Of a stretch of DNA of 23,530 bases, positions 2,957 through 20,321 are shown one piece after another. The DNA lies in the IMG/VR virus record IMGVR_UViG_2534681997_000007, positions 1 to 23,530 of that record. The stretch is one strand, 5' to 3'. This DNA is from a virus (lineage: Duplodnaviria > Heunggongvirae > Uroviricota > Caudoviricetes). A program made the translations under genes and the position numbers. Below the pieces are notes generated by a model that was given only the letters and a program-made list of their open reading frames with translations, had not been told where the DNA came from and made no database searches. The first letter of the stretch is position 1. Each line of letters opens with the position of its first letter.

Positions 2957-3466
2957 ATGTTTGATTTTCAGGTTTCCAAACATCCCCACTATGACGAAGC
3001 ATGCCGCATTTTCGCACAGCGTCACAACATGGCGAAGCTGGCCGAGCGTGCAGGTATGAACGTTCAAACGTTACGTAACAAGCTCAACCCGGAACAGCCT
3101 CACCAGTTCACGCCGCATGAATTGTGGCTGCTGACTGACCTGACCGAAGACTCAACCCTCATTGATGGTTTTTTAGCGCAGATTCACTGCCTACCATGCG
3201 TGCCGGTTAATGAGTTGGCTAAAGACAAATTGCAGTCTTATGTCATGCGCGCAATGCGTGAACTCGGCGAACTGGCGAGCGGCGCGGTATCTGATGAACG
3301 TCTGACCACTGCCCGTAAGCACAACATGATTGAAAGCGTTAACTCCGGCATTCGCATGTTGTCATTGTCGGCTCTGGCGCTGCATGCACGTCTGCAGACT
3401 AATCCAGCTATGTCGAGCGTGATCGATACCATGAGCGGTATTGGCGCATCGTTTGGTCTGATTTGA
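2957..3466 (+). CDS. cII: CII-like lysogeny-establishment regulator (186 CII family)
   Basis: Start moved to ATG 2957 (MFDFQVSKHPHYDEAC...) with SD GAGGG 9 nt upstream; ORF-track start 2927 is TTG. Position immediately after apl. Confidence 0.7.
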   Translation: MFDFQVSKHPHYDEACRIFAQRHNMAKLAERAGMNVQTLRNKLNPEQPHQFTPHELWLLTDLTEDSTLIDGFLAQIHCLPCVPVNELAKDKLQSYVMRAMRELGELASGAVSDERLTTARKHNMIESVNSGIRMLSLSALALHARLQTNPAMSSVIDTMSGIGASFGLI

Positions 3467-4493: not shown

Positions 4494-6713
4494 TTGGCTG
4501 TTCAATTCGCTTATCCGTGGAACGTCCCACGGTCGGCAATCTCCAGCCCATACCTTACTTATGAGCAACAGCATCGTCGCGACCGTATGTTCGCGGCTTT
4601 GCTGCATGCAAAAAAGGTGCTTTCTCTCCAGCCCGACTGCGTACGGTTAGATGTTTATCGCACTGCTGCGGTGCTGGAGCAAAATCAGGGTAGTCAACGA
4701 GCCAATGCATTTTTAATCAGCTTCTGCAAAAAGGCATTGCCGCGTCTTGAACTGGTCGCAAAAAAATACGAATGCGCTGGTATCAACAGCAAGGTATCAA
4801 CCGCTGTTTTTGGAAGTCATTTTGATACTCAGCAAATGCAATATCTGTCGTCACGCATGGTTAATATGGTCGCCCAATATAACCGTCTCCCGGACATGTC
4901 GCGCGCTGATGTTGACCTGTTGGCCGCTGATATTGCTAATTTCATTCGTGGTGAACTTGCCAACATTAATGACCACGGATTCGGCGAGCTTAAAACGCTG
5001 TACACCTGGTATATTCGTGCTGGCTTTATTTCCCTCCAATTCAACGTTATCCCACCACATTGGGAGCGGGTTGAAAAAAAATATGTCGGTGCGGATGAAA
5101 TCGCACCGGCTATCGCCAAAATGTTTAACGATGGGTGGTGGCGCGGTCGTTTGCGCCGTGTTGCAGCTACGTGGCGCGAACACCTGCAAATTGCAGTCGG
5201 CAACGTCAGTAAGAAAAAAAACACTTACGCGAGTAAAAACTGCGTGACTGACTGGCGTGAACAAAAGCGCCGCACTCGTGAATTTCTCAAAGGTCTGGAT
5301 CTCGAAGACGAAGACGGCAACCGTATCAGCCTAATTGAAAAATATGATGGCTCAGTTGCTAACCCTGCGATTCGCCGCTGTGAGCTCATGACCCGCATTC
5401 GTGGGTTTGAAAACATCTGTAATGAGCTCGGTTATGTCGGTGAGTTTTACACTCTAACCGCGCCGTCAAAATATCACGCCACGACTAAAGCCGGTTACCG
5501 TAACAGCAAATGGAGCGGTGCCAGCCCGGCTGACACGCAAAACTATCTAACCGGTATCTGGGCGCGTATCCGTGCCAAACTACATCGGGAAGATGTCCGT
5601 ATTTTCGGTATTCGTGTCGCCGAGCCCCATCACGACGGCACTCCACACTGGCACATGCTGATGTTCATGCTGCCGGAAGATGTTGAATATGTTCGCTCCA
5701 TCGTCCGTAAATACGCATGGAAAGAAGACCGCCACGAACTGAAAAGCGATAAATCCAAAAAAGCACGTTTCCACGCCGAGTCCATTGACCCGGAGAAAGG
5801 CAGCGCAACCGGCTATGTTGCTAAATACATTTCAAAAAATATCGACGGTTATGCTCTCGATGGTGAAACCGATGATGAAAGCGGTGAGCTGCTGAAAGAG
5901 ACAGCCCCCGCCGTTTCAGCATGGGCTGCGCGCTGGCACATCCGTCAGTTTCAGTTTATTGGTGGTGCGCCGGTGACGGTTTACCGTGAGTTGCGTCGCC
6001 TCGCTGATACCGAAACCGCGCACGGTCTGAGCGTTGAGTTTGCCGCCGTCCATGATGCCGCCGACGCTGGTGACTGGGCTGGTTATGTTAATGCTCAAGG
6101 TGGGCCGTTTGTCCGTCGCGATGATTTACAGGTGCGCACACTGTATGAACCGCGTACCGAGCTTAATCAGTACGGTGAGGAAACGGTATGTATTAAGGGG
6201 GTCTACGATTCCTCCATAGGTGCAGGAAGCCCGATTTTAACCCGGCTCACTCAGTGGAAGATTGTTCCGAAGCGTGCTGTTGATTTGGCCGTTGACCTTC
6301 AGGACGGCAAAGCCGTCCCTCGGAGTTCTGTCAATAACTGTACGGGAAGCGAAAGCGATCCACCGGAACTCGATTTATCAAAACCCCTGAGTCGACGTGA
6401 AAGACGAGAGCTGACAAACCGACTCAGGAAGCAAAAGCCAGCAATACGGCGAAAATTCATCCACGGAACGGATGAGCAAAACGCAGCTATAGCTAAAACT
6501 ATCGACGAGATACAACTTACAACTGGCATCACAATCAGCCGGGGCGAAGCCCTGCACCTGATGGCCGGTGGTAAAAGTTGTTTTGATGACAAATGGCTAC
6601 GCGGAACATCAATGGGTGAAATATTTTCCGCTGCGCCATCACATCAGGCTAAAGCCAAGAAAATCCTTAATCGCGTTGCTGCGATGGCTGAAGCAGCAAA
6701 AACCAATACCTGA
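4494..6713 (+). CDS. A: Rolling-circle replication initiator endonuclease gpA (P2 A / 186 RepA family)
   Basis: 739-aa ORF; HUH-type motif PHHDGTPHWHMLMF and catalytic tyrosine motif TGYVAKYISKNIDGYA; ORF-track start 4494 is TTG one base after the upstream stop, first in-frame ATG is 4587, so the start is uncertain. Confidence 0.9.
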   Translation: MAVQFAYPWNVPRSAISSPYLTYEQQHRRDRMFAALLHAKKVLSLQPDCVRLDVYRTAAVLEQNQGSQRANAFLISFCKKALPRLELVAKKYECAGINSKVSTAVFGSHFDTQQMQYLSSRMVNMVAQYNRLPDMSRADVDLLAADIANFIRGELANINDHGFGELKTLYTWYIRAGFISLQFNVIPPHWERVEKKYVGADEIAPAIAKMFNDGWWRGRLRRVAATWREHLQIAVGNVSKKKNTYASKNCVTDWREQKRRTREFLKGLDLEDEDGNRISLIEKYDGSVANPAIRRCELMTRIRGFENICNELGYVGEFYTLTAPSKYHATTKAGYRNSKWSGASPADTQNYLTGIWARIRAKLHREDVRIFGIRVAEPHHDGTPHWHMLMFMLPEDVEYVRSIVRKYAWKEDRHELKSDKSKKARFHAESIDPEKGSATGYVAKYISKNIDGYALDGETDDESGELLKETAPAVSAWAARWHIRQFQFIGGAPVTVYRELRRLADTETAHGLSVEFAAVHDAADAGDWAGYVNAQGGPFVRRDDLQVRTLYEPRTELNQYGEETVCIKGVYDSSIGAGSPILTRLTQWKIVPKRAVDLAVDLQDGKAVPRSSVNNCTGSESDPPELDLSKPLSRRERRELTNRLRKQKPAIRRKFIHGTDEQNAAIAKTIDEIQLTTGITISRGEALHLMAGGKSCFDDKWLRGTSMGEIFSAAPSHQAKAKKILNRVAAMAEAAKTNT

Positions 6714-6731
6714 GTAATTCACATCCATATC

Positions 6732-6765
6732 ATGAACATACAGCAATCACCCTGTTCATTTTTTT
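6732..6765 (+). terminator. Weak terminator-like hairpin after gene A (ATGAACA-N14-TGTTCAT followed by a T7 run)
   Basis: 7-bp AT-rich stem with a large loop, then TTTTTTT; read directly. Confidence 0.3.
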
Positions 6766-6790
6766 CTTCCCATCTTTTGCCAATACGTGC

Positions 6791-6810
6791 TACTGTATAA
6801 ATATACAGTA
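6791..6810. promoter_or_regulatory. LexA box (SOS operator) TACTGTATAAATATACAGTA
   Basis: Perfect CTGT-N8-ACAG core with AT-rich spacer, one mismatch to the 20-bp consensus; 21 bp upstream of the 6831 ATG; a possible -35 TTGCCA lies at 6777-6782. Confidence 0.7.
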
Positions 6811-6830
6811 CACCCTATGGGAGGGATTTC

Positions 6831-7013
6831 ATGGTTGGCGAACATTTCAGCCGAACGCAGCAAAAGTGGGCTTGTGTGCAATTTATTGCCGAGGTATCTC
6901 TGATTGCAAACTGCAAACCAGCAGACTTAAAGCTCGCACTCACTCTCATTGCTGACCTTGCAAACAGCGAAAATAACGAAACAGAAGAAAAAATTTTTTA
7001 TAAGGTTGAATAG
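6831..7013 (+). CDS. Small ORF under the LexA box; candidate SOS-induced protein at the position where phage 186 encodes its antirepressor Tum
   Basis: 60 aa; SD GGGAGGG 7 nt upstream of ATG; no recognisable domain; much shorter than 186 Tum as I recall it. Confidence 0.4.
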   Translation: MVGEHFSRTQQKWACVQFIAEVSLIANCKPADLKLALTLIADLANSENNETEEKIFYKVE

Positions 7014-7195
7014 AAGCATGATTGAACGACTCTCTTTGCAGGTTTTTTGACAGAAGTTAATAGCTTTTTCGTTAACCAAAGAAAAGACTGATAGTACAAA
7101 CGACTAGTAGAATCATCACCATGGCAAAAAGATAGTTTATTTAACTGAAATCACTGGATTTTGATGAAGAAATAGACAGTTTTACATAATGTTTG

Positions 7196-7224
7196 TTGAT
7201 TCACCGAAGACACGAACCTATAAT
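7196..7224 (+). promoter_or_regulatory. Sigma70-type promoter TTGATT-17 bp-TATAAT upstream of the Panacea-domain gene
   Basis: Consensus -10 at 7219-7224, -35 at 7196-7201, 17-bp spacer; ~150 bp upstream of the 7373 ATG. Confidence 0.5.
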
Positions 7225-7308
7225 TCGCGCGCTACCATGCTTATCGTCATTGCTATTTACTGTTATTTGTAAGTATTGACGCTACTAGAGTAGTCAGTTA
7301 GTCTCAAA

Positions 7309-7328
7309 GTAGATGGTTATCCATCTAC
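7309..7328. promoter_or_regulatory. Perfect palindrome GTAGATGG-TTAT-CCATCTAC between promoter and Panacea gene; candidate operator or 5' UTR hairpin
   Basis: 8-bp arms with 4-bp spacer read directly. Confidence 0.4.
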
Positions 7329-7372
7329 ATAAGATGCATCGCTTTTATGCGAGGTTCATCTAAGGAGGTTTT

Positions 7373-7843
7373 ATGTACAACCCGATTTGCATCGTGAACG
7401 AATTTATCGAACGCGCTAAAAAAAACGGGGACAACCTCACCCACATGCAGGCTCAAAAGCTTCTTTATGTTGCTCATGGTTACAGCCTAGCTTTTCTTAA
7501 CGAGCCTTTGCTTGAAGAACCAGTGTGTGCGTGGAGGTACGGTCCGGTAATTCCATCGGTCTACTATGCGCTGCGCCATAATCGTTCAAACCCGATATCA
7601 GAAAAAGCATCATCAACATCGGTAGTACCGGAAAAGATAGACAGTAAAACTGCATCACTTCTGGACATGATTTACGAAACATACGGGAAGCTTTCCGGTG
7701 TTCTCTTATCTGAATTTACTCATCGCCCAGGTACTCCATGGTCACAGGCGATAGAAAAACGAGAAAACATCATCAGTGATGCCAGTATCAAAGACTATTA
7801 TTTGCGTCTAGCAAGACGAGATCCAGTTTGCAACGGATTGTAA
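7373..7843 (+). CDS. Panacea-domain (DUF4065, GepA/SocA-like) protein; candidate antitoxin or immunity component
   Basis: 156 aa; strong SD AAGGAGG 5 nt upstream; motif MQAQKLLYVAHGYSLAFLNEPLLEEPVCAWRYGPVIPSVYYAL matches the DUF4065 core as I recall it. Confidence 0.75.
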   Translation: MYNPICIVNEFIERAKKNGDNLTHMQAQKLLYVAHGYSLAFLNEPLLEEPVCAWRYGPVIPSVYYALRHNRSNPISEKASSTSVVPEKIDSKTASLLDMIYETYGKLSGVLLSEFTHRPGTPWSQAIEKRENIISDASIKDYYLRLARRDPVCNGL

Positions 7844-7860
7844 AATCAGATTATTATTGA

Positions 7861-7885
7861 CCCCGCTTAAACTGCGGGGTTTTTT
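7861..7885 (+). terminator. Intrinsic-terminator-like hairpin CCCCGC-TTAAACT-GCGGGG followed by TTTTTT, ending immediately at the start codon of the next gene
   Basis: 6-bp GC stem, 7-nt loop, 6 T; the only purine-rich SD-like element for the downstream ATG (GGGG, 7876-7879) is inside the 3' arm. Confidence 0.5.
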
Positions 7886-8482
7886 ATGTCGTCCGATAAT
7901 GAAACAATCAAAAATCTGATGAAAGAGGCTATACAGAGTCATGTTACTGATCTCTTCAAATCTCTTGATGTAGGCCCTAAACCAAAGCCGACAGAAAGAT
8001 CCTCTCCCGCCAATGATGACCCCGAAGCAAACCTTTCTGCTGAAGACAAAGCCAAAAAAGAAGAACAGGCTTTTGATTCGCCTACTGATGATGAGCACGA
8101 AGAGTTGCAAGGTCTTGCATACTGGAGTCTGGAGCACAGGCGTCGGATAGACTCTCTTACAATTCAAAAAACACAAGAAGAAATTGTACGTATCTCTTGT
8201 GAAAACGACGACCTTAGGGCTAAAACAAAGAACAACCATGCAGTTGCCCGTGGCCGTCAAATAGACAACAGACTGCGTTTACAATTAGCTGCTGCAACCT
8301 TTAAGTTCATGCAGTATTGGTGTGGTTTTGTCGCTTTCATTGTTGCTTGGTATGTATTCGCCCACTATGGCAAACCTGAAAAAGAAGTCATCATTGCACT
8401 ACTCGGAACCAGCACAATAAGTATTATTGGTTTAGTTGGTTTTGTAGTTAGCGGTTTATTTAAATCAAAAAAAGATGAATAG
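7886..8482 (+). CDS. Small membrane protein with acidic N-terminal region and two C-terminal transmembrane helices; candidate toxin/abortive-infection effector
   Basis: 198 aa; hydrophobic segments FKFMQYWCGFVAFIVAWYVFAHY and VIIALLGTSTISIIGLVGFVVSGLF; N-terminal ~130 aa rich in D/E/K; AT-rich. Confidence 0.65.
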   Translation: MSSDNETIKNLMKEAIQSHVTDLFKSLDVGPKPKPTERSSPANDDPEANLSAEDKAKKEEQAFDSPTDDEHEELQGLAYWSLEHRRRIDSLTIQKTQEEIVRISCENDDLRAKTKNNHAVARGRQIDNRLRLQLAAATFKFMQYWCGFVAFIVAWYVFAHYGKPEKEVIIALLGTSTISIIGLVGFVVSGLFKSKKDE

Positions 8483-8532
8483 CACAGCATACCTAAAACA
8501 GGCTAACCCCACTGAAGAAAAACTATTTTTTT

Positions 8533-8574
8533 GTGCCAGCAGAGTTGAACAACTCGCACCACGGGGCGTTAGTT
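8533..8574 (+). repeat. Left copy of an imperfect ~42-bp direct repeat (core GTTGAACAAC...GGCGTTAGT)
   Basis: 31 of 42 positions identical to 8938-8979, including exact 10-mer and 9-mer blocks in the same register. Confidence 0.35.
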
Positions 8575-8696
8575 CTGCCTTTCAAAGTTTCTCGATGTGT
8601 TATTGATTACACACCCGTGATGAATGGGACGTTACCTTGGCGGGTTTTATAGTGGCGCTTTGGCAGCACTAAATAAAATTCATTGAAGGCGATAAT

Positions 8697-8906
8697 ATGC
8701 ATCGACTACCGGGCGAGATTCCGCAGCACAAAACTAAAAGCATACAACTTATGGCTATCGTTCATCGTCTGCAGACGATAATGGTCAATGAGAACCTGAC
8801 TCCAGCAGAGCTAGTCGGGTGTGCAGAAATAGTCAGGGATAATTACGGCAAGCTGGATAATATCAGCAGACCGACACAATACTCACCTCCACCACGTCGG
8901 CGATAG
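8697..8906 (+). CDS. Small hypothetical ORF between the repeat copies
   Basis: 69 aa; ATG with weak SD GAAGG; no recognisable domain. Confidence 0.3.
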   Translation: MHRLPGEIPQHKTKSIQLMAIVHRLQTIMVNENLTPAELVGCAEIVRDNYGKLDNISRPTQYSPPPRRR

Positions 8907-8917
8907 CAAACGCCGTC

Positions 8918-8942
8918 AGCGCTGAAACTCGCTTTCAGTGCT
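8918..8942. other. Stem-loop AGCGCTGAAA-CTCGC-TTTCAGTGCT between convergent genes
   Basis: 10-bp stem with one G-U pair; no U-tract on either side, so not a canonical terminator. Confidence 0.35.
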
Positions 8943-8979
8943 GGCGGGGTTGAACAACGAGCTACGCGAGGCGTTAGTC
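8938..8979 (+). repeat. Right copy of the imperfect ~42-bp direct repeat; overlaps the stop codon of the HNH gene
   Basis: See left copy at 8533-8574. Confidence 0.35.
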
Positions 8980-9852
8980 GAATTTTACAGGCGACAATGG
9001 TTGTTTTAATTCTTTATCGTGGAAATGTTTGTAGCGTGGATCCTTACGAGCCTCATCGGAAAATACCGATCGATTATCTTCTATCCTAAGATGGCCCGAG
9101 TCTAATAAACGATGTAGGTCTGAAGCAAGTGCAATACCGTTTTCAACACTTGGCGCTCCGCCTGCCGCGTGGCTTAAAATGTGACACGCATCAATCGCAA
9201 AGCGAGAGCCCGTAATTGCGCAACATCCCCTCCAATTGGCTAATACGTCCTTTCTGAACCGGCCTTGAGCTTTTCGTATTTTTGTCAGCGAATAACCATC
9301 TTCAACATATGAACGCTGCTCGAATGTAGGTGATGGTTCGGTTATCTGGGGTAATTGTTGCAAACCATTCTGGTTAACCTTAAATTCTTCCCAAAGATGC
9401 TTACTAACTATTTTACCTTGGCGAGCGCACCAGTTGGTAAAATCTCTCTTTTCGTATTCATCTAAAGACGCCAGCCATTCGCGTAATTCAGAAGTGGCTA
9501 AAACATTTTGATGTAATTGACGATTTTGTGGCAGTGGTGCCAACCTCTCTTTTTTCTCGCCTCGCCGGTAAGGGGGAAGTTTCAATGTGTCCTTCATTGA
9601 AATCGTGCCAGCTGCGTTGGTTCGGACGCTGAATTGACCAGCATACTCAACTTTTTTAGCAGTTGTGGGAGTTGTTGGCTTTCTGTTATTAGCCATCCAA
9701 CGCTGTACTTGGTGCAAGACTTCACTAGCTTCCAGCCCCTTACTTATCAATTCTTTGACATATTTTTTAACCTCTTGTTTATTTGGTTGGTATTCGAATA
9801 AATACGGTGAAAGCTTTAAAATTTCTTTCATTGAAGTTTTTGTTTCAGCCAT
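8974..9852 (-). CDS. HNH-endonuclease-domain protein with ~200-aa N-terminal domain of unknown function; candidate defence nuclease
   Basis: Start at the Met of MAETKT (9852) preceded by GGGGGGA; C-terminal motif CCAITGSRFAIDACHILSHAAGGAPSVENGIALASDLHRLLDSGHLRIED, HNH_2-like as recalled; AT-rich. Confidence 0.75.
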   Translation of the reverse strand: MAETKTSMKEILKLSPYLFEYQPNKQEVKKYVKELISKGLEASEVLHQVQRWMANNRKPTTPTTAKKVEYAGQFSVRTNAAGTISMKDTLKLPPYRRGEKKERLAPLPQNRQLHQNVLATSELREWLASLDEYEKRDFTNWCARQGKIVSKHLWEEFKVNQNGLQQLPQITEPSPTFEQRSYVEDGYSLTKIRKAQGRFRKDVLANWRGCCAITGSRFAIDACHILSHAAGGAPSVENGIALASDLHRLLDSGHLRIEDNRSVFSDEARKDPRYKHFHDKELKQPLSPVKFD

Positions 9853-10028
9853 AAATCCCCCCATTTTAATTTTCTAAAAATGCACTTAATGTCATTTTTC
9901 TCAGCGTGCATTCATGGTGCATGGTTTTGCATGCGAATAATGTCTCATTTTTATGGGTGCGCCACCAGTGCTGGCGCGGATCCAGAGTAATCATGCAACT
10001 GCATTAAAACCGCCCCATAAAGCGGGCA

Positions 10029-10047
10029 GGCGTGGCGGGGAAAGCAT
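10029..10047. other. cos site (19-nt cohesive-end sequence GGCGTGGCGGGGAAAGCAT)
   Basis: Matches the phage 186 cohesive end as I recall it (P2 differs at two positions); lies between the cargo island and portal gene Q as expected for a P2-like prophage. Confidence 0.6.
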
Positions 10048-10057
10048 TGCGCGCCAG

Positions 10058-10158
10058 CGGTGGTGCGTATTATTAAAAATTATCGTCTGAGAACGTCGTG
10101 ACGGCGCTGTAGTGGCCGGGTGTGATCGTGGGCGCGTGGTGCGTCTGTGGCGTGGTGC
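10058..10158. repeat. Three copies of (C/G)GTGGTGC(G) within 100 bp on the Q-proximal side of cos; candidate terminase recognition repeats
   Basis: CGGTGGTGCGT at 10058-10068, CGTGGTGCG at 10135-10143, CGTGGTGC at 10151-10158. Confidence 0.35.
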
Positions 10159-10251
10159 TAAAGGATGGGATCAGTTGCACAATTTTACGGTTTCGCTTTG
10201 GCTAATATCCATATTGAGACTTTATGTTCCCCACAACAGTTGGAGGCTTTA

Positions 10252-10476
10252 ATGGATAACTATCATATTACAAAAGATGGCGATAAGTGGAAGTTGCAAA
10301 AAGAGGGCAATGATCGCCCTAGCAAGACCGCGACCACAAAGGCCGAGCTGATTAAAACAACATCTGAGTTTATGTCGAACAAAACAGGCTCGGTCAAAAT
10401 TCACAAGGAAGATGGGAAAATTCAGGAAGAACGCACTTATCAGAGAAAAGATGATCCTAAAAAGTCTAAAGGCTAA
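10252..10476 (+). CDS. Small basic protein, DUF2188-like, between cos and the portal gene
   Basis: Start at ATG 10252 (MDNYHITKDGDKWKLQKEGNDRPSK...) with SD GGAGG 5 nt upstream; ORF-track start 10165 lacks an SD. Confidence 0.55.
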   Translation: MDNYHITKDGDKWKLQKEGNDRPSKTATTKAELIKTTSEFMSNKTGSVKIHKEDGKIQEERTYQRKDDPKKSKG

Positions 10477-10484
10477 CATAGCAA

Positions 10485-10505
10485 AAGCCGCCAAAATGGC
10501 GGCTT
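10485..10505 (-). terminator. Hairpin AAGCCGCC-AAAAT-GGCGGCTT between convergent genes; best fits termination of the Q/P operon
   Basis: 8-bp stem; on the minus strand it is followed by TTTGCTATGTT; sits 10 bp beyond the Q stop. Confidence 0.5.
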
Positions 10506-10514
10506 AAAAGGTGA

Positions 10515-11561
10515 TTATTCCGGGTTGTCGAGTGTGTACTCTTTGAACCTGATGACCTCCATACCGAGCCAGTCGTTTACCTCCCTGAACCTATCCTGCA
10601 GGGGTGACAGCTCATTACGCACAAATACCTTTGCCACCTTCTCAACGTCACCGAGTGAACCGATATTCTCGGGCTTGCCGCCCATGAGCTGGAACGGCAC
10701 GCGGTGCGCGTCCATCAGGTCGGCGGCGCTGGCTTTCTTAATGTTGAAAAAGTCATCCTTTGTGGCGACCTCGCTCAGTGGCACGATTTTGATGCCGTCC
10801 GGTTTTCCGCCGGGGGCGTAGAAAAACAGGTTCTTAAAGTTGCCGAGTCCCTTCGAGTTACGCATCGCCTCGCGCAGCGATTCGACGTCGGTCGCACTTT
10901 GCGCCGGGTCAGTCACATACATGATGTAGCCTGCGTGCGCGCCGTTCTGATAATACTTGCGGCGGAACAGCGTCGCGGATTCATTCAGCCAAGCGGAATT
11001 AAGCGCGCTGAGATATTCCGGCAGACCGTAAATCTCCTGATTAATGTCGGGCTCCAGCAGGTGAAACACGGTATCAGGCGCGAACTCGTGCGGCTGGGTG
11101 AAGTTTTCCACAAACCAGAAAATCGAATCGTCGACTCCGCGTCGGGTGTATTTGGCTGGCGAGGCCAGCAGTTTGATTAACTGGCCGGTGACGCTGTGGC
11201 GCTGCTCAAGAAAGGCGTTACCGAATACCAGATAATCGAGCGCAAAGCGGCTGAAATCCTGACGGGATAACAACGGGTGCGGAATGTAGGTGCTCGCGAG
11301 CACGTTACGCTTAACATAAATTGGCGAGCTGTGATGCACGGCAGAGCGCAGGCTCTTTGCCAGCCCTGAGAAGCTGACCGGCGGCTCGTACCATTTGCCG
11401 TTACTGATGCACTCGACGTAATCCAGAATGTCGCGCTTATCGAGTACCGGCACCGGCTCGCCGAAGGTGAACGCTGTCGTTTTTGGCGGTGCGCTGGCGG
11501 TCAGTTGTTGTGGTTTGCTGGCCTTTTGTGCGTTGGCTTTACGGGATTTTTGTTTACCCAT
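10515..11561 (-). CDS. Q: Portal protein gpQ
   Basis: 348 aa, P2 Q-sized, basic N-terminus MGKQKSRKANAQK; position next to cos and downstream of terminase P. Confidence 0.9.
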   Translation of the reverse strand: MGKQKSRKANAQKASKPQQLTASAPPKTTAFTFGEPVPVLDKRDILDYVECISNGKWYEPPVSFSGLAKSLRSAVHHSSPIYVKRNVLASTYIPHPLLSRQDFSRFALDYLVFGNAFLEQRHSVTGQLIKLLASPAKYTRRGVDDSIFWFVENFTQPHEFAPDTVFHLLEPDINQEIYGLPEYLSALNSAWLNESATLFRRKYYQNGAHAGYIMYVTDPAQSATDVESLREAMRNSKGLGNFKNLFFYAPGGKPDGIKIVPLSEVATKDDFFNIKKASAADLMDAHRVPFQLMGGKPENIGSLGDVEKVAKVFVRNELSPLQDRFREVNDWLGMEVIRFKEYTLDNPE

Positions 11562-11562
11562 T

Positions 11563-13332
11563 TTAGTTGAACTCCAGAATAGATTTAGGCTGCATGCCGC
11601 TACCGGCAGAAAGCGGTTCGTTTAACAGGGCGTGCATGGTCGCCCATGCGATATCGGCGTGGCTGGCTTCCTCGGTGCGGCTGGCCTCATAGGTAGCGCT
11701 GCGCCCGCTGCTGGTCATGGTTTTGCGGATGGACATAAACGACTGCGTGACGTCGGTTGCTCCGGCGTCGTACTCCAGACAGCCACGGCGAATGGTGTCT
11801 TTCGCCTTGAGTACCATTGCGGTTTTCATTTCAGGTGTGTAACGGATGCCGCGTGCCGCCGGGTAAAATGAGCGCACCAGCTGGAACACGCCGAGACCGA
11901 GGCCGGTTGCGTCAATGCCGATGTATTCGACGTTGTATTTCTCGGTCAGCTTGCGGATGCCCTCTGCCTGTGCTGCAAAATCCATACCCTTCCACTGGTG
12001 GCGCTCCAGCATGCGGAACTTGCCACCAGAGACCACCGGCGGCGCGAGCACGACGCACCCGGCACTGTCGCCGGTGTGTGACGGGTCGTAGCCTATCCAG
12101 ACAGGACGAGAGCCGAACGGATGGTCGGCGAACGGGGCAAAGTCCTCCCATTCCTCCATCACATCGACCATGCAGCGCTGCAGCTCCTCGAACGGGAATA
12201 CCGACGCTTTATCGTCGACAAACTCGCACATAAACAGGTTCTTAAAGTCCTCATCACTGTTTTCGCGTTTGAGCTGGTCGAGGTCGAACAGGGTGCAGCC
12301 ACCCGCAAGGGCGTCCTCAATGGTGACAATCTGCCGCCACTGGCCATCGTCGCAGAGCTGGCCACCGGCGAGCGCGCTGTGACTGATGTCGATTTCGATG
12401 CGGTCGGCAATCCGGCTGCGCCCCTTGTTGAACAGCTCGCCAGACCAGAAGGGGTAAGCGCCGTGCGCCAGCGTGGAAGGTGTCGAAAAATAGGTCGAGC
12501 GCAGGTGCTTTTGCGAGGCCATGCCCGAGGCGACTTTGCGCAGTTTCTGAAAATTCGGGATCCAGAATATTTCATCGACATACAGATCGCCGTTATGGCT
12601 CTGCGCGGTGTTGGAATTGGTACCGAGAAAAATCAGTTTTGCGCCGTTGTTACCGATGACAATCGGGTCGCCAGTCAGGTCAACGTCGACCAGTCGCGCA
12701 AACTGGATGATGTATTCGCGGAACACGTAAGCCTGCGTTTTACTGGCTGATAAAAATATCTGGTTATGGCCGGTTTTGAGTGCGCGCAGCAGTGCCTCGC
12801 GGGAGAAATAGAATGTCGCGCCAATCTGGCGGGATTTGAGAATGTCACGAATACGGTGCTCCAGTCCTGCGCGGTACCACTGCAACTGGTACTCGAAAGA
12901 CTGGTCGAAAAATAATTCCTCTAGTTTATCGATAGCCTCGTCGCTGAAAAAATTCTTTTTCGGCTTTTTGCGCTCCCCTTTGTTGCGGTTGGCGACGTTG
13001 GGGTTAAGGTCGGCTTCGTTGCCGGTCTGGCTGTAGCGGTTGACTCGCGCCAACCGTTCAATCTGCCGTCCGAGCAGGTCAATCTCTTTGAAATCACCCC
13101 CTGTCTTTTGCGGCTTGGCGATGAGCTGAATCAGCCTAGCCTCAAGGCTGCTTTCAACGCGGGAAATCGGCGCGATGCCGTCCCAGCCGTCGCGCTGCTT
13201 CCAGCTCTGCACGGTCGGGCGCTTGACCTGCAGCATTTCGGCAATCTGTGGCACGGAAAAACCCTGCCAGTAAAGCAGCGATGCCTGCCGTCGCGGGTCA
13301 TGCAACAAGGTTGTATCGGTGGAAATGGTCAT
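11563..13332 (-). CDS. P: Terminase large (ATPase) subunit gpP
   Basis: 589 aa, P2 P-sized; divergent from scaffold gene O. Confidence 0.9.
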   Translation of the reverse strand: MTISTDTTLLHDPRRQASLLYWQGFSVPQIAEMLQVKRPTVQSWKQRDGWDGIAPISRVESSLEARLIQLIAKPQKTGGDFKEIDLLGRQIERLARVNRYSQTGNEADLNPNVANRNKGERKKPKKNFFSDEAIDKLEELFFDQSFEYQLQWYRAGLEHRIRDILKSRQIGATFYFSREALLRALKTGHNQIFLSASKTQAYVFREYIIQFARLVDVDLTGDPIVIGNNGAKLIFLGTNSNTAQSHNGDLYVDEIFWIPNFQKLRKVASGMASQKHLRSTYFSTPSTLAHGAYPFWSGELFNKGRSRIADRIEIDISHSALAGGQLCDDGQWRQIVTIEDALAGGCTLFDLDQLKRENSDEDFKNLFMCEFVDDKASVFPFEELQRCMVDVMEEWEDFAPFADHPFGSRPVWIGYDPSHTGDSAGCVVLAPPVVSGGKFRMLERHQWKGMDFAAQAEGIRKLTEKYNVEYIGIDATGLGLGVFQLVRSFYPAARGIRYTPEMKTAMVLKAKDTIRRGCLEYDAGATDVTQSFMSIRKTMTSSGRSATYEASRTEEASHADIAWATMHALLNEPLSAGSGMQPKSILEFN

Positions 13333-13497
13333 TGATGCCTCGCCGTAGTGGATTCAGGGCAAGGCTACTTAATGGCCGTCAGTGATTCGCTAAGGTGCTG
13401 TTGTGTGGGCGGTTGTCCAGTCGTCATTGGTGGTCTGGCGTGTCCTGAGTCTGGAAACTGGCGGTGACCAGTAACCTCAACCTCAGGACTCCTGACA

Positions 13498-14352
13498 ATG
13501 GCAAAAAAAGTCTCAAAATTCTTTCGCATCGGTGTCGAGGGTGACACCTGCGACGGCCGCATTATCAGCGGCAACGATATTCAGGAAATGGCCGAATCGT
13601 TTGACCCTCGCGTCTACGGTTGCCGCATTAACCTTGAGCATATTCGCGGTCTCTTTCCTGATGGCGACTTCAAACGCTTAGGCGATGTGGTTGAACTGAA
13701 AGCTGAAATAATTGACGACGATTCTGCGCTTAACGGCAAATGGGCGTTGTTCGCCAGAATCACCCCAACCGACGACCTGATTGCGATGAATAAAAAATTG
13801 CAGAAGGTCTACACCTCAATGGAAATTCAGCCGAATTTTGCCAATACCGGCAAATGCTACCTCGTCGGCCTTGCTGTCACCGATGACCCGGCGAGCCTCG
13901 GCACTGAATACCTCGAATTCTGCCGCAACGCGAAGCACAACCCTCTGCAGCGCTTTAAGGCCAACCCTGAAAACGTCTTTTCCGCTGCCACGCTGGCCGA
14001 ATTGGAATTTGAAGACGTTCCCGATACGGTGCTAAACAGCCTGGCAGATAAGGTGAAAGCCATTTTCAGCCGTAAGCAGGTCAGCGACGATGCGCGCCTG
14101 AATGATGTGCATGAAGCGGTGACCACCGTCAGCGAGCATGTGCAGACCAACCTCACTGCGCAGGATAAGCGTCTTTCCGCTATGGAAGCCGCGCTTACCA
14201 CCTTTAAACAGGAACTGACCGGCAAGATTGAAGAAACCAGCCAGGCATTTTCCGCCCTGAAAGCCACCCTCGACAAAACCGAAAGTTTCAGCCAGCCGCG
14301 ACGCACGAAAGCCAGCGGCGGCGGTGGCGATGAGCTGCTGACCGACTGCTGA
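13498..14352 (+). CDS. O: Capsid scaffolding protein gpO
   Basis: 284 aa, same length as P2 O; immediately upstream of the major capsid gene. Confidence 0.9.
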   Translation: MAKKVSKFFRIGVEGDTCDGRIISGNDIQEMAESFDPRVYGCRINLEHIRGLFPDGDFKRLGDVVELKAEIIDDDSALNGKWALFARITPTDDLIAMNKKLQKVYTSMEIQPNFANTGKCYLVGLAVTDDPASLGTEYLEFCRNAKHNPLQRFKANPENVFSAATLAELEFEDVPDTVLNSLADKVKAIFSRKQVSDDARLNDVHEAVTTVSEHVQTNLTAQDKRLSAMEAALTTFKQELTGKIEETSQAFSALKATLDKTESFSQPRRTKASGGGGDELLTDC

Positions 14353-14371
14353 TAAACCGCAGACCAGAAAC

Positions 14372-14390
14372 CGGGCGGTAACTCCGCCCG
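14372..14390 (+). other. Stem-loop CGGGCGG-TAACT-CCGCCCG between scaffold and capsid genes
   Basis: Perfect 7-bp GC stem, no U-tract; possible attenuator or processing site. Confidence 0.3.
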
Positions 14391-14428
14391 ATGCAGTGAC
14401 TAACCGATAAATTCAAACAGGAAATACT

Positions 14429-15496
14429 ATGCGCCCGGAAACCCGTTTTAAGTTCAATGCCTATCTGACCCGCGTCGCTGAGCTGAACGGCATCAGCACT
14501 GATGACGTCAGTAAAAAATTCACCGTCGAGCCGTCCGTCACGCAAACGCTGATGAACAAAGTGCAGGAGTCATCCGCGTTTCTGCAGACGATTAACATTC
14601 TGCCGGTCGCAGAAATGAAGGGTGAGAAAATCGGCGTCGGTGTGACCGGTACTATCGCCAGCACGACCGACACCTCGGGCGATGATGAGCGTAAGACCGC
14701 AGACTTCACCGCGCTTGAGTCCAACAAGTACGAGTGCGACCAGATTAACTTTGACTTCCATCTGAAATATAAAACCCTCGACCTGTGGGCGCGTTTTCAG
14801 GACTTTCAGCGCCGCATCCGTGACGCCATTGTTAAGCGTCAGGCGCTCGATTTCATCATGGCCGGTTTTAACGGTACCACCCGCGCCGCCACCTCTGACC
14901 GCACCAAAAATCCGATGCTGCAGGATGTAGCCGTCGGCTGGCTGCAGAAATACCGCAACGAAGCCCCGACGCGTGTGATGAGCAATATCACCGATGCTGA
15001 CGGTAAGGTCGTTTCGGCAGTGATTCGCGTCGGTAAAAACGGCGACTATGAGAACCTCGACGCGCTGGTGATGGATGCTACCAACAACCTGATTGACGAG
15101 GTTTATCAGGATGACCCGAAACTCGTTGCCATCGTTGGCCGTAAGCTGCTGGCCGACAAATATTTCCCGCTGGTGAACAAGCCGCAAGAAAACAGCGAAG
15201 CGCTCGCGGCAGATATCATCATCAGCCAGAAGCGAATCGGCAACCTGCCTGCTGTGCGTGTACCGTACTTCCCGGCGAATGCCGTGTTAGTGACAACGCT
15301 GGAAAACCTCTCTATCTATTTCATGGATGAGAGCCACCGCCGCAGCATTGATGAAAACCCGAAAAAAGACCGCGTGGAAAACTACGAGTCAATGAATATC
15401 GACTATGTGGTCGAGGCGTATGCCGCCGGGTGTCTGCTGGAAAACATCACCCTGGGCGATTTCACCGCACCTGCAGCACCGGAAAGCGGAGAGTAA
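14429..15496 (+). CDS. N: Major capsid protein gpN
   Basis: 355 aa, P2 N-sized, in the expected position. Confidence 0.9.
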   Translation: MRPETRFKFNAYLTRVAELNGISTDDVSKKFTVEPSVTQTLMNKVQESSAFLQTINILPVAEMKGEKIGVGVTGTIASTTDTSGDDERKTADFTALESNKYECDQINFDFHLKYKTLDLWARFQDFQRRIRDAIVKRQALDFIMAGFNGTTRAATSDRTKNPMLQDVAVGWLQKYRNEAPTRVMSNITDADGKVVSAVIRVGKNGDYENLDALVMDATNNLIDEVYQDDPKLVAIVGRKLLADKYFPLVNKPQENSEALAADIIISQKRIGNLPAVRVPYFPANAVLVTTLENLSIYFMDESHRRSIDENPKKDRVENYESMNIDYVVEAYAAGCLLENITLGDFTAPAAPESGE

Positions 15497-15500
15497 GCCC

Positions 15501-16250
15501 ATGACGAGCCCCGCACAGCGTCACATGATGCGGGTCTCGGCCTCTCAAGCCGCGCAGCGGGAACAAGCCCCGCTGCGCCATGCAACCGCCTACGAGCAGA
15601 TGCTGGTAAAGCTGGCCGATGACCGCCGCACGTTGAAAACCATCCGTTCAAACGAACTGAAAGCCGCGAAAAAGCGTGAGCTGCTGCCGTTCTATGCGCC
15701 GTGGGTCGCCGGTGTGCTGGCTGATGGCCGTGGTGCGCAGGATGACATTCTGATGACCGTCATGCTGTGGCGTCTCGATGCCGGTGATATCGCTGGCGCG
15801 CTGGAAATTGCGCCATACGCGCTGAAGTACGGCCTCACCTCTGACTATCGCCGCACGACACCTTACATGCTGATTGAGGAGGTGGCGCTTGCCGCGCTGC
15901 GCCTGCGCGATGCCGGTGAGCCTGTCGACCTCGCATTACTGCTGACCACCCTTAGCCTGACCGACGGCGCTGACGTTCCCGATATGGTGCGCGCTCGACT
16001 GCATAAGGTGACCGGTCTAACCCTGCGCGATGCCGGTCAGAGCGCCGAAGCGCTGGCACAGTTTCAGCGCGCGATGCAGCTCGACCGCAATGCCGGTGTG
16101 CGCAAAGAGATTGAGCGACTGGAGCGCGCATTGAAGCCAAAGCCAGAGGCAGCATCCCGTAAAACGACTAAACCGCGCACGCGCAAACCTGCCAACAAAC
16201 CGGCGGCAAAGCGCGGGCGTCCACCAAAGGCGGTAAAAACCGCCGGTTAA
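15501..16250 (+). CDS. M: Terminase small (endonuclease) subunit gpM
   Basis: Start moved to ATG 15501 (MTSPAQRHMM...) with SD GGAG upstream; the ORF-track start lies inside N. Confidence 0.85.
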   Translation: MTSPAQRHMMRVSASQAAQREQAPLRHATAYEQMLVKLADDRRTLKTIRSNELKAAKKRELLPFYAPWVAGVLADGRGAQDDILMTVMLWRLDAGDIAGALEIAPYALKYGLTSDYRRTTPYMLIEEVALAALRLRDAGEPVDLALLLTTLSLTDGADVPDMVRARLHKVTGLTLRDAGQSAEALAQFQRAMQLDRNAGVRKEIERLERALKPKPEAASRKTTKPRTRKPANKPAAKRGRPPKAVKTAG

Positions 16251-16279
16251 CTGAACGCTCCCCGAGCCGGGCGGCACGC

Positions 16280-16299
16280 CGGTCAAAGCGGGTTTTGAC
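16280..16299 (+). other. Stem-loop GGTCAAA-GCGGGT-TTTGACC between M and L
   Basis: 7-bp stem read directly, no U-tract. Confidence 0.25.
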
Positions 16300-16343
16300 C
16301 CTGACGGCGACCGGCGTCCACCGCCCAACCTAATGAGGTTGTC

Positions 16344-16853
16344 ATGACGACAGTAATACTGAATCAGCCCGACGAACCGCAGGACGTACCGGGCGTGGTG
16401 ATTCCCGCACCGGAGACGGGCGACGCAGTGATTAAAAACACGTTCTTTTTCCCTGATGTGGATCCGAAGCGGGTGCGCGAACTGATGCGCCTTGAGCAGA
16501 CGGTTTCCGATGCGCGCCTGCGCAACGCCATCAAGACCGGTATAGCGGAAACCAATGCGGAGCTTTACGACTACCGGCTGCGCCAGATTGCCGCAGGGTT
16601 TAAGACACTGGCCGACGTGCCTGACGCCGAGGAAATCGACGGCGAGAATGTGCGCGTTTTCCACTACCTCAGCGCCGTGACGGCGATGGCGACCGCCACC
16701 CTGTATGAGCGTTATCGCGGGGTTGAGGCCACCGGCAAGGGTGACAAAAAAGCCGACAGCGTCGAAACCACCATTGATGACCTGTGGCGGGATATGCGCT
16801 GGTCGGTCTCGCGCCTGCAGGATAAGCCGCGCTGCATCGTGGGTCAGCTCTGA
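16344..16853 (+). CDS. L: Head completion/stabilisation protein gpL
   Basis: 169 aa, same length as P2 L, in the expected position. Confidence 0.85.
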   Translation: MTTVILNQPDEPQDVPGVVIPAPETGDAVIKNTFFFPDVDPKRVRELMRLEQTVSDARLRNAIKTGIAETNAELYDYRLRQIAAGFKTLADVPDAEEIDGENVRVFHYLSAVTAMATATLYERYRGVEATGKGDKKADSVETTIDDLWRDMRWSVSRLQDKPRCIVGQL

Positions 16854-17056
16854 TGAAAGTCTACGCGATGCAGGGCGACATCATCGACGCGCTTTGCGCC
16901 CGGTATTACGGGCGCACTGAGGGCGTGGTCGAGGCGGTGCTGCAGGCTAATCCCGGTCTGTCTGAGCTGGGCGTCATTCTGCCGCATGGCACGGCAATTG
17001 ACCTGCCCGACGTGGCATCGTCACCCGTAACAGAAACTATCAACCTTTGGGAGTAA
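16853..17056 (+). CDS. X: Tail protein gpX
   Basis: 67 aa, same length as P2 X; overlapping start/stop with L. Confidence 0.8.
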   Translation: MKVYAMQGDIIDALCARYYGRTEGVVEAVLQANPGLSELGVILPHGTAIDLPDVASSPVTETINLWE

Positions 17057-17059
17057 ACC

Positions 17060-17356
17060 ATGACAGAAGGGGAAAAAGGCGTCCTATCACTGTTTGTGAT
17101 TGGCGTGATGATTGTTGTCGGAAAAGTGCTGGCGGGTGGTGAGCCCATTACCCCGCGCCTGTTTATCGGCCGCATGCTGCTCGGCGGTTTTGTTTCAATG
17201 GTCGCCGGTGTTGTTCTGGTGCAGTTTCCAGATATGTCACTGCCTGCCGTTTGTGGGATTGGATCCATGCTCGGCATTGCAGGTTATCAGGTGGTGGAAA
17301 TCGCCATTCAGCGCCGCTTTAAGTCACAACAGGGGGATAGCGATGCCGGTCATTAA
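17060..17356 (+). CDS. Holin
   Basis: 98 aa with three hydrophobic segments and a charged C-terminus; directly upstream of the endolysin gene. Confidence 0.7.
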   Translation: MTEGEKGVLSLFVIGVMIVVGKVLAGGEPITPRLFIGRMLLGGFVSMVAGVVLVQFPDMSLPAVCGIGSMLGIAGYQVVEIAIQRRFKSQQGDSDAGH

Positions 17357-17840
17357 TACTCACCAGAATATCGCCGCGTTTCTGGACATGCTGGCCTATT
17401 CCGAAGGGACGGCGATGCATCCGCTGACGAAAAATCGTGGTTACGACGTCATTGTCACTGGCATTGATGGCAAGCCGGAAATTTTCACCGACTACACCGA
17501 CCACCCTTTCGCACATGGCAGACCAGCGAAAGTGTTTAATCGACGCGGCGAAAAATCCACGGCATCAGGGCGTTACCAGCAGCTTTATCTCTACTGGCCG
17601 CACTATCAGAAACAGCTCGCATTGCCTGATTTCAGCCCGTTGTCGCAGGACAAACTTGCGATTCAGTTAATCCGGGAGCGCGGTGCCATTGAGGATATTA
17701 AAGCGGGGCGTATTGAGCGAGCAATTTCACGTTGCCGCAATATATGGGCGTCGCTGCCGGGTGCAGGTTACGGCCAGCGTGAGCACAGCCTCGACAAACT
17801 GGTCACTGTGTGGCGCACGGCTGGCGGGGTGATGGCATGA
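17343..17840 (+). CDS. K: Endolysin, lambda R-type lytic transglycosylase (P2 K position)
   Basis: Motifs FLDMLAYSEGT, GYDVIVTG, DYTDHPF, CRNIWASLPGAGYGQREH resemble lambda R as recalled; start at ATG 17343 overlapping the holin 3' end. Confidence 0.85.
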   Translation: MPVINTHQNIAAFLDMLAYSEGTAMHPLTKNRGYDVIVTGIDGKPEIFTDYTDHPFAHGRPAKVFNRRGEKSTASGRYQQLYLYWPHYQKQLALPDFSPLSQDKLAIQLIRERGAIEDIKAGRIERAISRCRNIWASLPGAGYGQREHSLDKLVTVWRTAGGVMA

Positions 17841-18250
17841 AAATCCTGATAACGCTGCTGGTGCTGGCCGTGCTCGGGCTGCTGTGGTTGCGCCATGAGA
17901 ACGGCAATTTATCCCGCTCCTTTGAGACGGCAAACCGCGTCGCAAGCGAACAAAAGACGACGATTGGCATGCTGAAAAATCAGCTCAGTGTTACCGGTCA
18001 GCTTGCCAGACGTAATGAATCTGCGCAGGTGGCACTGCGTGAACAGCTCGCAAAGGCCAGCGAGGAAGCCAGCCGCCGCGAGCAATCAATAACGAGGTTA
18101 CTTAATGAAAATGAAGCCTTTCGCCGCTGGTATAACGCTGCTTTACCTGATGTTGTGCGTCGGTTGCACATCCGCACCGCCTGCGCCAGCGCCGGTGATT
18201 GTGGTCAACGGATGCCCGAGAGTGAGCCTTTGCCCGATGCCGGGAAGTGA
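17837..18250 (+). CDS. lysB: i-spanin (Rz/LysB-like)
   Basis: N-terminal TM helix MKILITLLVLAVLGLLWL then charged helical periplasmic domain; ATGA overlap with the endolysin stop. Confidence 0.75.
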   Translation: MKILITLLVLAVLGLLWLRHENGNLSRSFETANRVASEQKTTIGMLKNQLSVTGQLARRNESAQVALREQLAKASEEASRREQSITRLLNENEAFRRWYNAALPDVVRRLHIRTACASAGDCGQRMPESEPLPDAGK

Positions 18251-19267: not shown

Positions 19268-19335
19268 ATATTGTGTGAACCACCACCGAAGCCGCGCGAA
19301 TTGGCGCGACTCCAGACCAGAGGCATCCTTGCACT

Positions 19336-20315: not shown

Positions 20316-20321
20316 ATCACT

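Follow-up and report, generated by a model that had tools for sequence, protein, structure and literature searches.

Organization of the interval between gene A and cos

We analysed a 23,530-nucleotide stretch of Caudoviricetes DNA (IMG/VR virus record IMGVR_UViG_2534681997_000007, positions 1 to 23,530; hereafter the window), with a focus on the interval at 6714-10028, which lies between phage gene A and the cohesive-end site cos and carries a predicted toxin-antitoxin pair of the PanAT type together with a gene for a predicted HNH_2 nuclease. As the original prediction had recognised, this location is the cos-proximal gpA-gpQ hotspot reported in PMC9122126 (Rousset et al. 2022), the site occupied by tin and old in phage P2. 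The genes, elements and right border of the interval are as follows.

6793-6808, plus strand: LexA box CTGTATAAATATACAG, a perfect box in a p95-like SOS promoter, upstream of tumA
6831-7013, plus strand: tumA, 60 residues, putative antirepressor for prophage SOS induction, homologue of PSP3 TumA
7373-7843, plus strand: panA, predicted 156-residue Panacea-domain antitoxin (PF13274, SocA_Panacea)
7886-8482, plus strand: panT, predicted 198-residue toxin, homologue of PanT of phage PhiR47_1 (phrog_13343)
8493-8578, plus strand: 87-nt structured element, diverged copy 1 (covariance model R1, 42.3 bits, E 2.7e-8, full model length)
8697-8906, plus strand: gp37-like small open reading frame (ORF), 69 residues (phrog_11386, E 2e-47)
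8897-8983, plus strand: 87-nt structured element, copy 2 (R1, 88.1 bits, E 4e-20; fold z = -3.8)
8974-9864, minus strand: predicted HNH_2 nuclease, 296 residues (292 possible, from Met5), a single-gene cassette (PF13391, E 2.4e-8)
9906-10028, unstranded: conserved cos-proximal block, right border of the cargo slot; from 9906-9918 on, the sequence is again homologous to 613R3, PSP3 and 186
10029-10047, unstranded: cos cohesive-end sequence GGCGTGGCGGGGAAAGCAT, matching P2 cosR GGCGAGGCGGGGAAAGCAC at 17 of 19 positions

Four of the five ORFs (6831-7013, 7373-7843, 7886-8482 and 8697-8906) are thus read from the plus strand and one (8974-9864) from the minus strand, consistent with the mixed gene orientation reported previously. 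The interval is flanked on the left by gene A (4494-6713; Pfam PF05840, E 2e-130) and on the right, beyond cos, by the portal gene Q (10515-11561; Pfam PF04860). The gene A product is 87% identical to the A protein of phage 186 compared with 38% identity to that of P2, the left arm encodes 186-type CI, CP76/CII and Fil proteins, and the nearest phage relatives at the DNA level are 613R3, SW9, PSP3 and SEN1. Judged by these matches, the backbone is 186/PSP3-like rather than that of P2 proper. The absence of the P2 genes themselves, which had been noted from inspection of the sequence, was borne out: searching the window by tblastn with P2 Tin (253 residues) and Old (586 residues) returned best E values of 2.5 and 1.0, respectively, and neither Pfam nor PADLOC scans of the window detected an OLD- or Tin-type domain.

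The low GC content on which the interval had been singled out was confirmed by calculation. GC content is 0.423 in 6714-10028, compared with 0.520 in the whole window, 0.506 in gene A and 0.566 at 10515-23530; the lowest 3315-bp window (0.421) begins at 6651, and only 0.7% of windows fall below the interval itself. Codon usage follows the same trend, with GC at third codon positions (GC3) of 0.34-0.47 in the genes of the interval and 0.63-0.73 in Q, P, O, N, M and L. This windowed analysis, which had been suggested as a check, therefore recovers a true compositional contrast, with the caveats that gene A is only mildly GC-rich (GC 0.51, GC3 0.49) and that the int/CI arm at the left of the window is likewise AT-rich (0.42-0.47). 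Moreover, the segment containing the LexA box and tumA has a GC content of 0.415 and is as AT-rich as the rest, so that AT-richness fails to separate cargo from core at this locus.

Two replaceable segments between conserved blocks

Alignment of the flanks to related phages resolves what composition does not. BLASTN homology to PSP3 and 613R3 covers 6000-7014, resumes at 8518/8544 and continues to 8977/8985, and resumes again at 9906/9918 to run past 10028, with nothing in between. We define two replaceable segments on this basis, at approximately 7015-8517, which contains PanAT, and 8985-9905, which takes in the HNH gene. At the right end, the terminal ...GGGCA of 186 aligns to 10024-10028 and the 186 record ends at the base equivalent to 10028; with cos at 10029-10047, position 10028 is the end of the mature genome. 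The right limit given in the original prediction coincides with this point. The claim that the whole block is acquired cargo stands for PanAT and the HNH gene, which appear to have been swapped in, and is not supported for tumA, the LexA box, the gp37-like ORF and the 87-nt elements, which are shared with relatives.

We conclude that the interval between gene A and cos is probably a mosaic, in which conserved regulatory parts are interspersed with two exchangeable cassettes that were acquired separately and work separately. The distance from tumA to Q varies from ~0.9 to 4.1 kb in 18 loci representing different species, and none of these 18 tumA-carrying loci contains PanAT or the HNH gene, which argues against the cargo being part of a conserved core. 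PanAT occurs without the HNH gene in 20/20 P2-type viral loci as well as in Enterobacter and Serratia prophages and a Vibrio element; conversely, Pectobacterium prophages, another P2-like prophage and a chromosomal island of Serratia carry the HNH gene and lack PanAT. Because each is found separately in other P2-family phages, we regard PanAT and the HNH gene as independent modules, in keeping with one of the two options left open by the original prediction, namely that the components of the block act independently.

The other option, in which 6714-10028 is one imported island whose tumA, panA, panT, 69-residue ORF and HNH gene cooperate as a single anti-phage system, could draw on the AT-richness of the entire interval, on the common strand of the first four genes (no terminator being predicted to separate panA from tumA), and on the unchanged recurrence of the five-gene arrangement in several assemblies. 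However, PanAT and the HNH gene were found together in only one prophage type, which is near-identical across the several public assemblies that contain it, such that the recurrence represents one prophage rather than independent co-occurrences. In addition, tumA with its LexA box, the 69-residue ORF and the stem-loop are all conserved in PSP3, 613R3 and 186, none of which carries PanAT or the HNH gene. Together with the separate occurrence of the cassettes described above, these observations make a single cooperating island highly improbable. Named records of the cargo proteins come from E. coli, Salmonella and Citrobacter, and no exact fragment of the window's proteins was found in that part of the Table S5B protein sequences of Rousset et al. 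that was covered by the comparison.

A conserved, predicted SOS-induction module follows gene A

The left third of the interval resembles the SOS operon of phage 186, which is annotated as p95, tum, t95a, orf97 and t95b, with a LexA site and the promoter p95 at the equivalent place directly after gene A. Two matches to CTGW-N8-WCAG occur in the entire window, one of which is the LexA box at 6793-6808, and an equivalent box was found 35-40 nt upstream of tumA in 20/20 related loci. The tumA gene itself lies ~120 nt after gene A in 18/18 of the species-representative Enterobacterales loci mentioned above, and its product is 92% identical to PSP3 TumA and matches phrog_1993 (E 1e-30). Since the box and the gene are kept in 20/20 and 18/18 loci, respectively, and match the 186 SOS operon, sequence comparison identifies them as core regulation of the lineage and not as cargo.

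By analogy with 186 Tum, the antirepressor behind SOS induction of that phage (Shearwin 1998, cited in PMC5322425 and PMC7067206), the LexA-repressed promoter would drive tumA; once DNA is damaged, TumA would disable CI and thereby induce the prophage. Comparison of the two proteins qualifies this analogy: BLASTP gives no match between TumA and 186 Tum, while a local alignment of 29 residues to 186 Tum residues 13-42 reaches a score of 55 (z = 7.4) that was attained by 0/2000 shuffles. In the related prophage BTP5, the tum transcript was reported as the most abundant, and post-transcriptional control was suspected (Owen et al.).

The DinI-like part of the operon is missing here. A DinI-like gene follows tumA in 7/18 of the species loci, as it does in PSP3 and 613R3, and tblastn searches of the window that used TumB, DinI of E. 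coli and the C-terminal portion of 186 Tum as queries returned no significant DinI-like sequence; a homologue of orf97 was likewise not found in the window. Separately, we observed that the 90%-identity protein cluster that includes the 60-residue TumA also lists 77-residue DinI-family proteins dissimilar to it, which is probably a clustering artefact created by fused or mis-called tumA-tumB ORFs.

The predicted PanA/PanT cassette

PanAT occupies the place of the dinI-like tumB of PSP3. The following additional features belong to the cassette.

7196-7224, plus strand: sigma-70-type promoter TTGATT-17-TATAAT of the PanAT cassette, matching 10 of 12 consensus positions
7225-7372, plus strand: panA leader, with two hairpins and the Shine-Dalgarno (SD) sequence AAGGAGG (fold z = -4.1)
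7860-7881, plus strand: GC-rich intercistronic hairpin, followed by six T residues and the panT ATG (terminator-like call, fold z = -4.3)

PanA matches PF13274 with an E value of 1.3e-18 (68.4 bits, cut-off 25.7) and the NCBIfam SocA_antitoxin model with 91.7 bits, under the equivalog cut-off of 190. It is 43% identical to PanA of Escherichia phage PhiR47_1, and the product of the next gene is likewise 43% identical (E 5e-39) to the PanT-annotated protein of the same phage, in addition to its phrog_13343 match; in PhiR47_1 the PanA/PanT-annotated pair lies at the end of the genome. No Pfam domain was found in PanT. It has a charged, variable N-terminal region, and its last 60 residues, which form a predicted membrane hairpin, are almost invariant across 24 homologues, with a hydropathy peak at residues 166-192. 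PADLOC assigned no named defence system to PanA, PanT or the HNH protein, returning generic 'HNH' models and a weak CARF/HEPN match to PanT (E 0.003) that we regard as chance.

The gene order is strongly conserved. The PanT family comprises 76 clusters, nearly all from Enterobacterales, and in 50 of the 52 viral loci from IMG/VR the panT homologue has panA as its immediate upstream neighbour; the same order is found in Enterobacter, Serratia and Vibrio loci. Of these viral loci, 20 map between gpA and gpQ of P2-family phages, and 31 are of lambdoid type. Beyond these, PanAT follows tum and dinI and adjoins cos in an Enterobacter prophage, directly follows gene A in a Serratia prophage, and is located beside serine recombinases in a Vibrio element. 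Nucleotide homology to the Enterobacter and Serratia cassettes spans 7196-8482 and begins exactly at the predicted promoter, both hexamers of which are invariant among the three genera. In complete E. coli genomes, cassette DNA was represented only by a 119-nt match with 72% identity, in 19 of 5426 genomes.

By its sequence, the cassette is a predicted type II toxin-antitoxin system with a predicted promoter of its own. PanT of Shiga toxin-producing E. coli (STEC) O31 was reported to depolarise and permeabilise the membrane, with pore formation, and to form a complex with PanA (Kurata et al. 2022, PMC8832971), and the PhiR47_1 pair agrees with this validated system in gene order (antitoxin, then toxin) and in its 22-nt spacer. 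By analogy, PanT, with its conserved C-terminal membrane hairpin, would most likely depolarise or permeabilise the inner membrane, and PanA would bind and neutralise it. We infer an anti-phage function for both PanAT and the HNH protein; for PanAT the likely role would be abortive infection against superinfecting phages, with prophage retention as an alternative or additional role. In support of the location, 'DUF4065 + hypothetical', DUF4065 being another name of the Panacea domain, is listed among the arrangements of the P2 hotspot (Rousset et al. 2022, PMC9122126).

Three points weigh against this view of PanAT. The PhiR47_1 pair is equated with the tested pair (WP_000019185.1 / WP_000287252.1) by annotation, host type and spacer length, not by sequence; our literature search found no phage-defence test of a membrane-type PanAT pair; and the lack of a predicted terminator between tumA and panA would permit SOS read-through into PanAT, so that the tumA and PanAT modules may not be fully independent in transcription. 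The last two points also favour a different role, in which PanAT works for the prophage and not in defence, whether as a module for addiction or against curing or as a helper of SOS-linked killing or lysis. Such a role would fit the replacement of tumB, directly after the LexA-controlled tumA and on the same strand, and the classical association of type II toxin-antitoxin systems with the stabilisation of mobile elements (PMC8832971). It is opposed by the cassette's own conserved promoter, by the documented occurrence of anti-phage genes at this locus, which acts as a reservoir of them (PMC9122126), and by the Enterobacter and Serratia cassettes, which are cos-proximal and located after DinI or in the absence of tum, indicating that linkage to tumA is not conserved. 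We therefore consider service to the prophage the less likely role, at perhaps one chance in a few, and anti-phage defence the preferred one.

Predicted RNA structures in the PanAT transcript

The panA leader contains a hairpin at 7309-7328 (GTAGATGG-TTAT-CCATCTAC). Among the three sequences compared, one from each of three genera, leader stems pair through different sequence (ATGG/CCAT, ACGA/TCGT and GCGA/TCGC), which is suggestive of stem conservation across genera. The leader could be an operator or a regulatory RNA.

A second structure separates the two genes. The 42-nt spacer between panA and panT in the window contains the hairpin at 7860-7881, which in an alignment of 18 P2-hotspot PanAT cassettes consists of 9 pairs, 7 with compensatory changes and 8 never broken. 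The Vibrio cassette has an unrelated stem at the same position, and the lambdoid/STEC-type pair has a 22-nt spacer without a hairpin. The 3' arm of the hairpin (GCGGGG) is the sole SD-like sequence before panT, and we infer that the hairpin functions as a transcriptional attenuator, as an occluder of the panT ribosome-binding site, or as both. Together with the T-run, it would hold toxin output below antitoxin output. A sub-threshold match of the Rfam Trp-leader family over this hairpin, the sole Rfam match, is regarded as spurious.

The predicted HNH_2 nuclease cassette

The HNH_2 domain resides at the C-terminus of its protein, with C215, H228, H232, N242, H251 and D255 invariant among 13 homologues. 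Over ~85 residues only, it gives sub-threshold matches to NF045808, a phosphorothioated-DNA-binding restriction endonuclease, and to PDB entry 6yex, which we take to be VcaM4I (EVE-HNH), a modification-dependent enzyme. The family is small (15 clusters), with close homologues also named from Pantoea, and the N-terminal region is rarer still: an exhaustive phmmer search of 1.84 billion representatives with residues 1-188 retrieved 4 clusters, all of the same HNH family. No match to the HNH DNA was found in 5426 complete E. coli genomes.

The cassette and its upstream region are 77% identical to Pectobacterium P2-like prophages, with homology extending over 8942-10054 and thus including cos. In these prophages, as in another P2-like prophage, the HNH gene is adjacent to cos on the strand of Q and P, has different neighbours or none, and is accompanied by no PanAT, making it the sole cargo gene shared with the window. 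All 20 P2-type PanAT viral loci lack it. In Serratia fonticola, a 40%-identical homologue is found in a chromosomal cluster with DUF4238, HEPN_AbiV and ApeA genes, of which DUF4238 has been validated as active against T7 (Rousset et al. 2022, PMC9122126); the same study lists 'HNH_2 + hypothetical' among P2-hotspot arrangements. The position of the gene and its leftward orientation from beside cos are those of P2 old, and in the P2 annotation the old-tin mRNA starts ~150 nt from cosR and runs leftwards.

The left junction of the cassette can be placed precisely. The HNH stop codon (TAA on the minus strand, 8974-8976) is formed by the TTA within the terminal GTTAG (8973-8977) of the second 87-nt element, and homology to the Pectobacterium cassette reaches 32 nt into this element; together these position the junction exactly at the 3' end of the element.

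Going by its HNH_2 domain, in which the metal-binding and catalytic residues are intact, the HNH protein is most likely a stand-alone restriction-like nuclease acting against foreign, possibly modified, DNA, in which the rare N-terminal region would choose the target. That the target is modified DNA is a guess by analogy, proposed because the protein has no methyltransferase partner and related HNH_2 enzymes act in this way. Several results count against this assignment. Residues 1-190 gave no sequence match in Pfam, NCBIfam, PADLOC or PDB and contain no known modified-base reader (EVE, SRA or SBD), although they may form a novel one. An AlphaFold2 model built from 13 sequences had a mean predicted local distance difference test (pLDDT) score of 56.8, and a Foldseek search of it against PDB returned nothing at E <= 0.001. 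Finally, a consensus scan found no promoter for the gene.

A non-defensive role has also to be weighed, with the protein acting as a selfish homing endonuclease at a cos-proximal site, or as a packaging helper that aids cos cleavage as HK97-type HNH proteins do. In every P2-family instance we saw, the gene adjoins cos on the strand of Q and P; the intergenus homology takes in the cos-proximal block; and the family is small and patchy, as free-standing homing genes often are. In opposition to these features, packaging proceeds in the absence of this gene in most P2-family phages, among them P2, 186 and PSP3; the protein has a PF13391 domain whose nearest matches are the restriction-type model and 6yex (the presumed VcaM4I); and the Serratia homologue resides in a chromosomal defence-gene cluster with no phage packaging genes nearby. 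A homing or packaging role is accordingly unlikely, and a defensive nuclease remains our preferred assignment.

A covarying 87-nt element at the end of the SOS operon

Two copies of a structured element flank the gp37-like ORF, a member of a widespread protein cluster (Salmonella, E. coli and Citrobacter) that is 90% identical to PSP3 gp37 and to the corresponding ORF of 613R3. Copy 1 begins 11 nt after the panT stop, and the PSP3/613R3 homology resumes inside it, at 8518-8544; copy 2 begins at the stop codon of the gp37-like ORF. The copies are linked by a 54-nt direct repeat (8520-8573 and 8925-8978). We considered the possibility that copy 1 is a truncated remnant and rejected it, as the covariance model matches its full length. 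The element is laid out as AAC-[17-bp stem, 5-nt loop]-GTT-G-AACAACGAGC-nnn-GCGAGGCGTT-AG, and occurs unannotated in related phages as follows.

186 locus, 4833-4919: one copy, after orf97
PSP3 locus, 2742-2827 and 3146-3232: two copies, as also in 613R3

More broadly, at least 119 IMG/VR contigs carry the element, as do 542 of the 5426 complete E. coli genomes (~10%). Its placement is the same in all 80 viral loci analysed: between gpA and Q, on the strand of tum and after the last gene of the SOS operon. The gene preceding it encodes DinI/TumB in 49 of the 80 loci, and gp37, Orf97, TumA or 186 Tum in almost all of the others; Q begins 0.6-3.7 kb beyond the element.

Covariation supports the structure. 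Compensatory changes affect 13 of the 17 pairs of helix 1, in which 94.8% of alignment cells pair, compared with 26-46% in slid controls; 0/500 shuffles reached this level. G-U cells outnumber A-C cells by 114 to 7, and the structure is hence specific to the sense strand. The search pattern itself accounts for part of the 3'-motif conservation in the large alignment; in a smaller set picked by a 10-mer alone, GAGGCGTTAG is kept in 14 of 15 sequences. Rfam contains no match for the element, and a literature search using its sequence returned nothing relevant.

In our reading, the element is a boundary signal that closes the SOS operon at its 3' end, and it forms the left border of the slot for cos-proximal cargo. 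More specifically, we give about an even chance to its being a so far undescribed RNA signal of the tum SOS operon, acting in 3'-end formation, processing or stability. An intrinsic terminator is unsupported, since no T-run follows the element in the alignment. Very unlikely, in our estimate, is an undescribed single-strand recombination signal for cassette exchange, which would invoke the AAC-stem-GTT followed by the invariant AACAACGAGC...GCGAGGCGTTAG, together with the position of the element after panT and the gp37-like ORF here and precisely at the left edge of the variable cargo in hundreds of P2-family prophages; if true, it would provide a mechanism for the very fast turnover of defence genes reported at this hotspot. 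An integron attC-type site, whose definition calls for an imperfect palindrome in which the R'' and R' boxes are complementary (RYYYAAC...GTTRRRY) and for recombination by an integron integrase, was considered and rejected: the stem closes with AAC...GTT and the right side reads GTTGAAC, with a left box that is not complementary beyond AAC. The window encodes no integron integrase, going by the gene list of an assembly with the same arrangement.

Regions adjoining the interval

The cos-proximal block that borders the cargo slot on the right has an equivalent in P2, where it contains the start of the old-tin mRNA. A 16-nt inverted repeat (88% complementary), at 9963-9978 and 10050-10065, brackets cos and is probably part of the terminase recognition region. 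Beyond cos, a third variable segment (10119-10514) between cos and Q belongs to the same hotspot, lies outside 6714-10028, and holds the following gene.

10252-10476, plus strand: DUF2188 gene, 74-residue form (within a 103-residue ORF from 10165) (PF09954, E 7e-18; PADLOC PDC-S16, E 1.3e-14)

The start at 10252 is preceded by GGAGG upstream of its ATG, and most members of the cluster have 74 residues; this form is more likely than the 103-residue one. Elsewhere in the window, a gene for a YebY-like protein of 112 residues (PF10709) lies at 1246-1584 on the minus strand, between the integrase and the CI repressor, an interval that has been reported as a site of accessory genes in P2-family phages.

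Comparison with known systems

The hotspot and both kinds of cargo have already been catalogued; the main gain here is the corrected anatomy of the region. This anatomy separates core regulation from exchangeable parts within an AT-rich 'island' of a 186-type prophage, with borders placed to within a few bases. As in other P2-family gpA-gpQ hotspots, the content of the gene A-Q interval is variable among related phages and lies next to cos, and the cargo is short and AT-rich, a single locus holding more than one system (Rousset et al. 2022; Moura de Sousa et al. 2026, PMC13586616). The locus differs in its 186/PSP3-type backbone, which makes the left third of the interval a conserved tum SOS operon, and in the position of PanAT, which here lies within the tum operon in place of tumB, unlike its Enterobacter and Serratia relatives in the cos-proximal slot.

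The SOS segment shares with the 186 operon and with PSP3 tumA-tumB a LexA box and a tum-type gene directly after gene A, and with 186 also the structured element at the operon's 3' end, as found after orf97. The DinI-like moiety, present as the C-terminal part of 186 Tum and as PSP3 TumB, is missing here, with PanAT in its place, and orf97 has no homologue. The 87-nt element may bear on the control of tum expression or on cassette swapping, and the finding of two unannotated, covarying RNA-like structures was the least expected result of the analysis.

The PanAT pair resembles that of Kurata et al. 2022 (cluster T3, STEC O31) in having a stand-alone Panacea antitoxin upstream of a toxin with a charged N-terminal region and C-terminal transmembrane segments. 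It departs from that pair as a diverged P2-hotspot subfamily with a 40-47-nt spacer that includes a covarying hairpin and a T-run. Members of this subfamily, residing in P2-family hotspots, could tell whether membrane PanT proteins act in abortive infection.

The HNH protein shares with NF045808 and with VcaM4I, as we presume 6yex to be, the C-terminal HNH_2 pattern of Cys, His, Asn and His residues in a single polypeptide with no methyltransferase partner. It differs in that the likeness is sub-threshold and confined to ~85 residues, and in its N-terminal 190 residues, which contain no known reader. With this orphan N-terminal region, the rare HNH_2 protein is a candidate for a new single-gene nuclease defence. 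It occupies the slot and the leftward orientation near cos that are taken by Old in P2, while having no sequence similarity to either Old or Tin.

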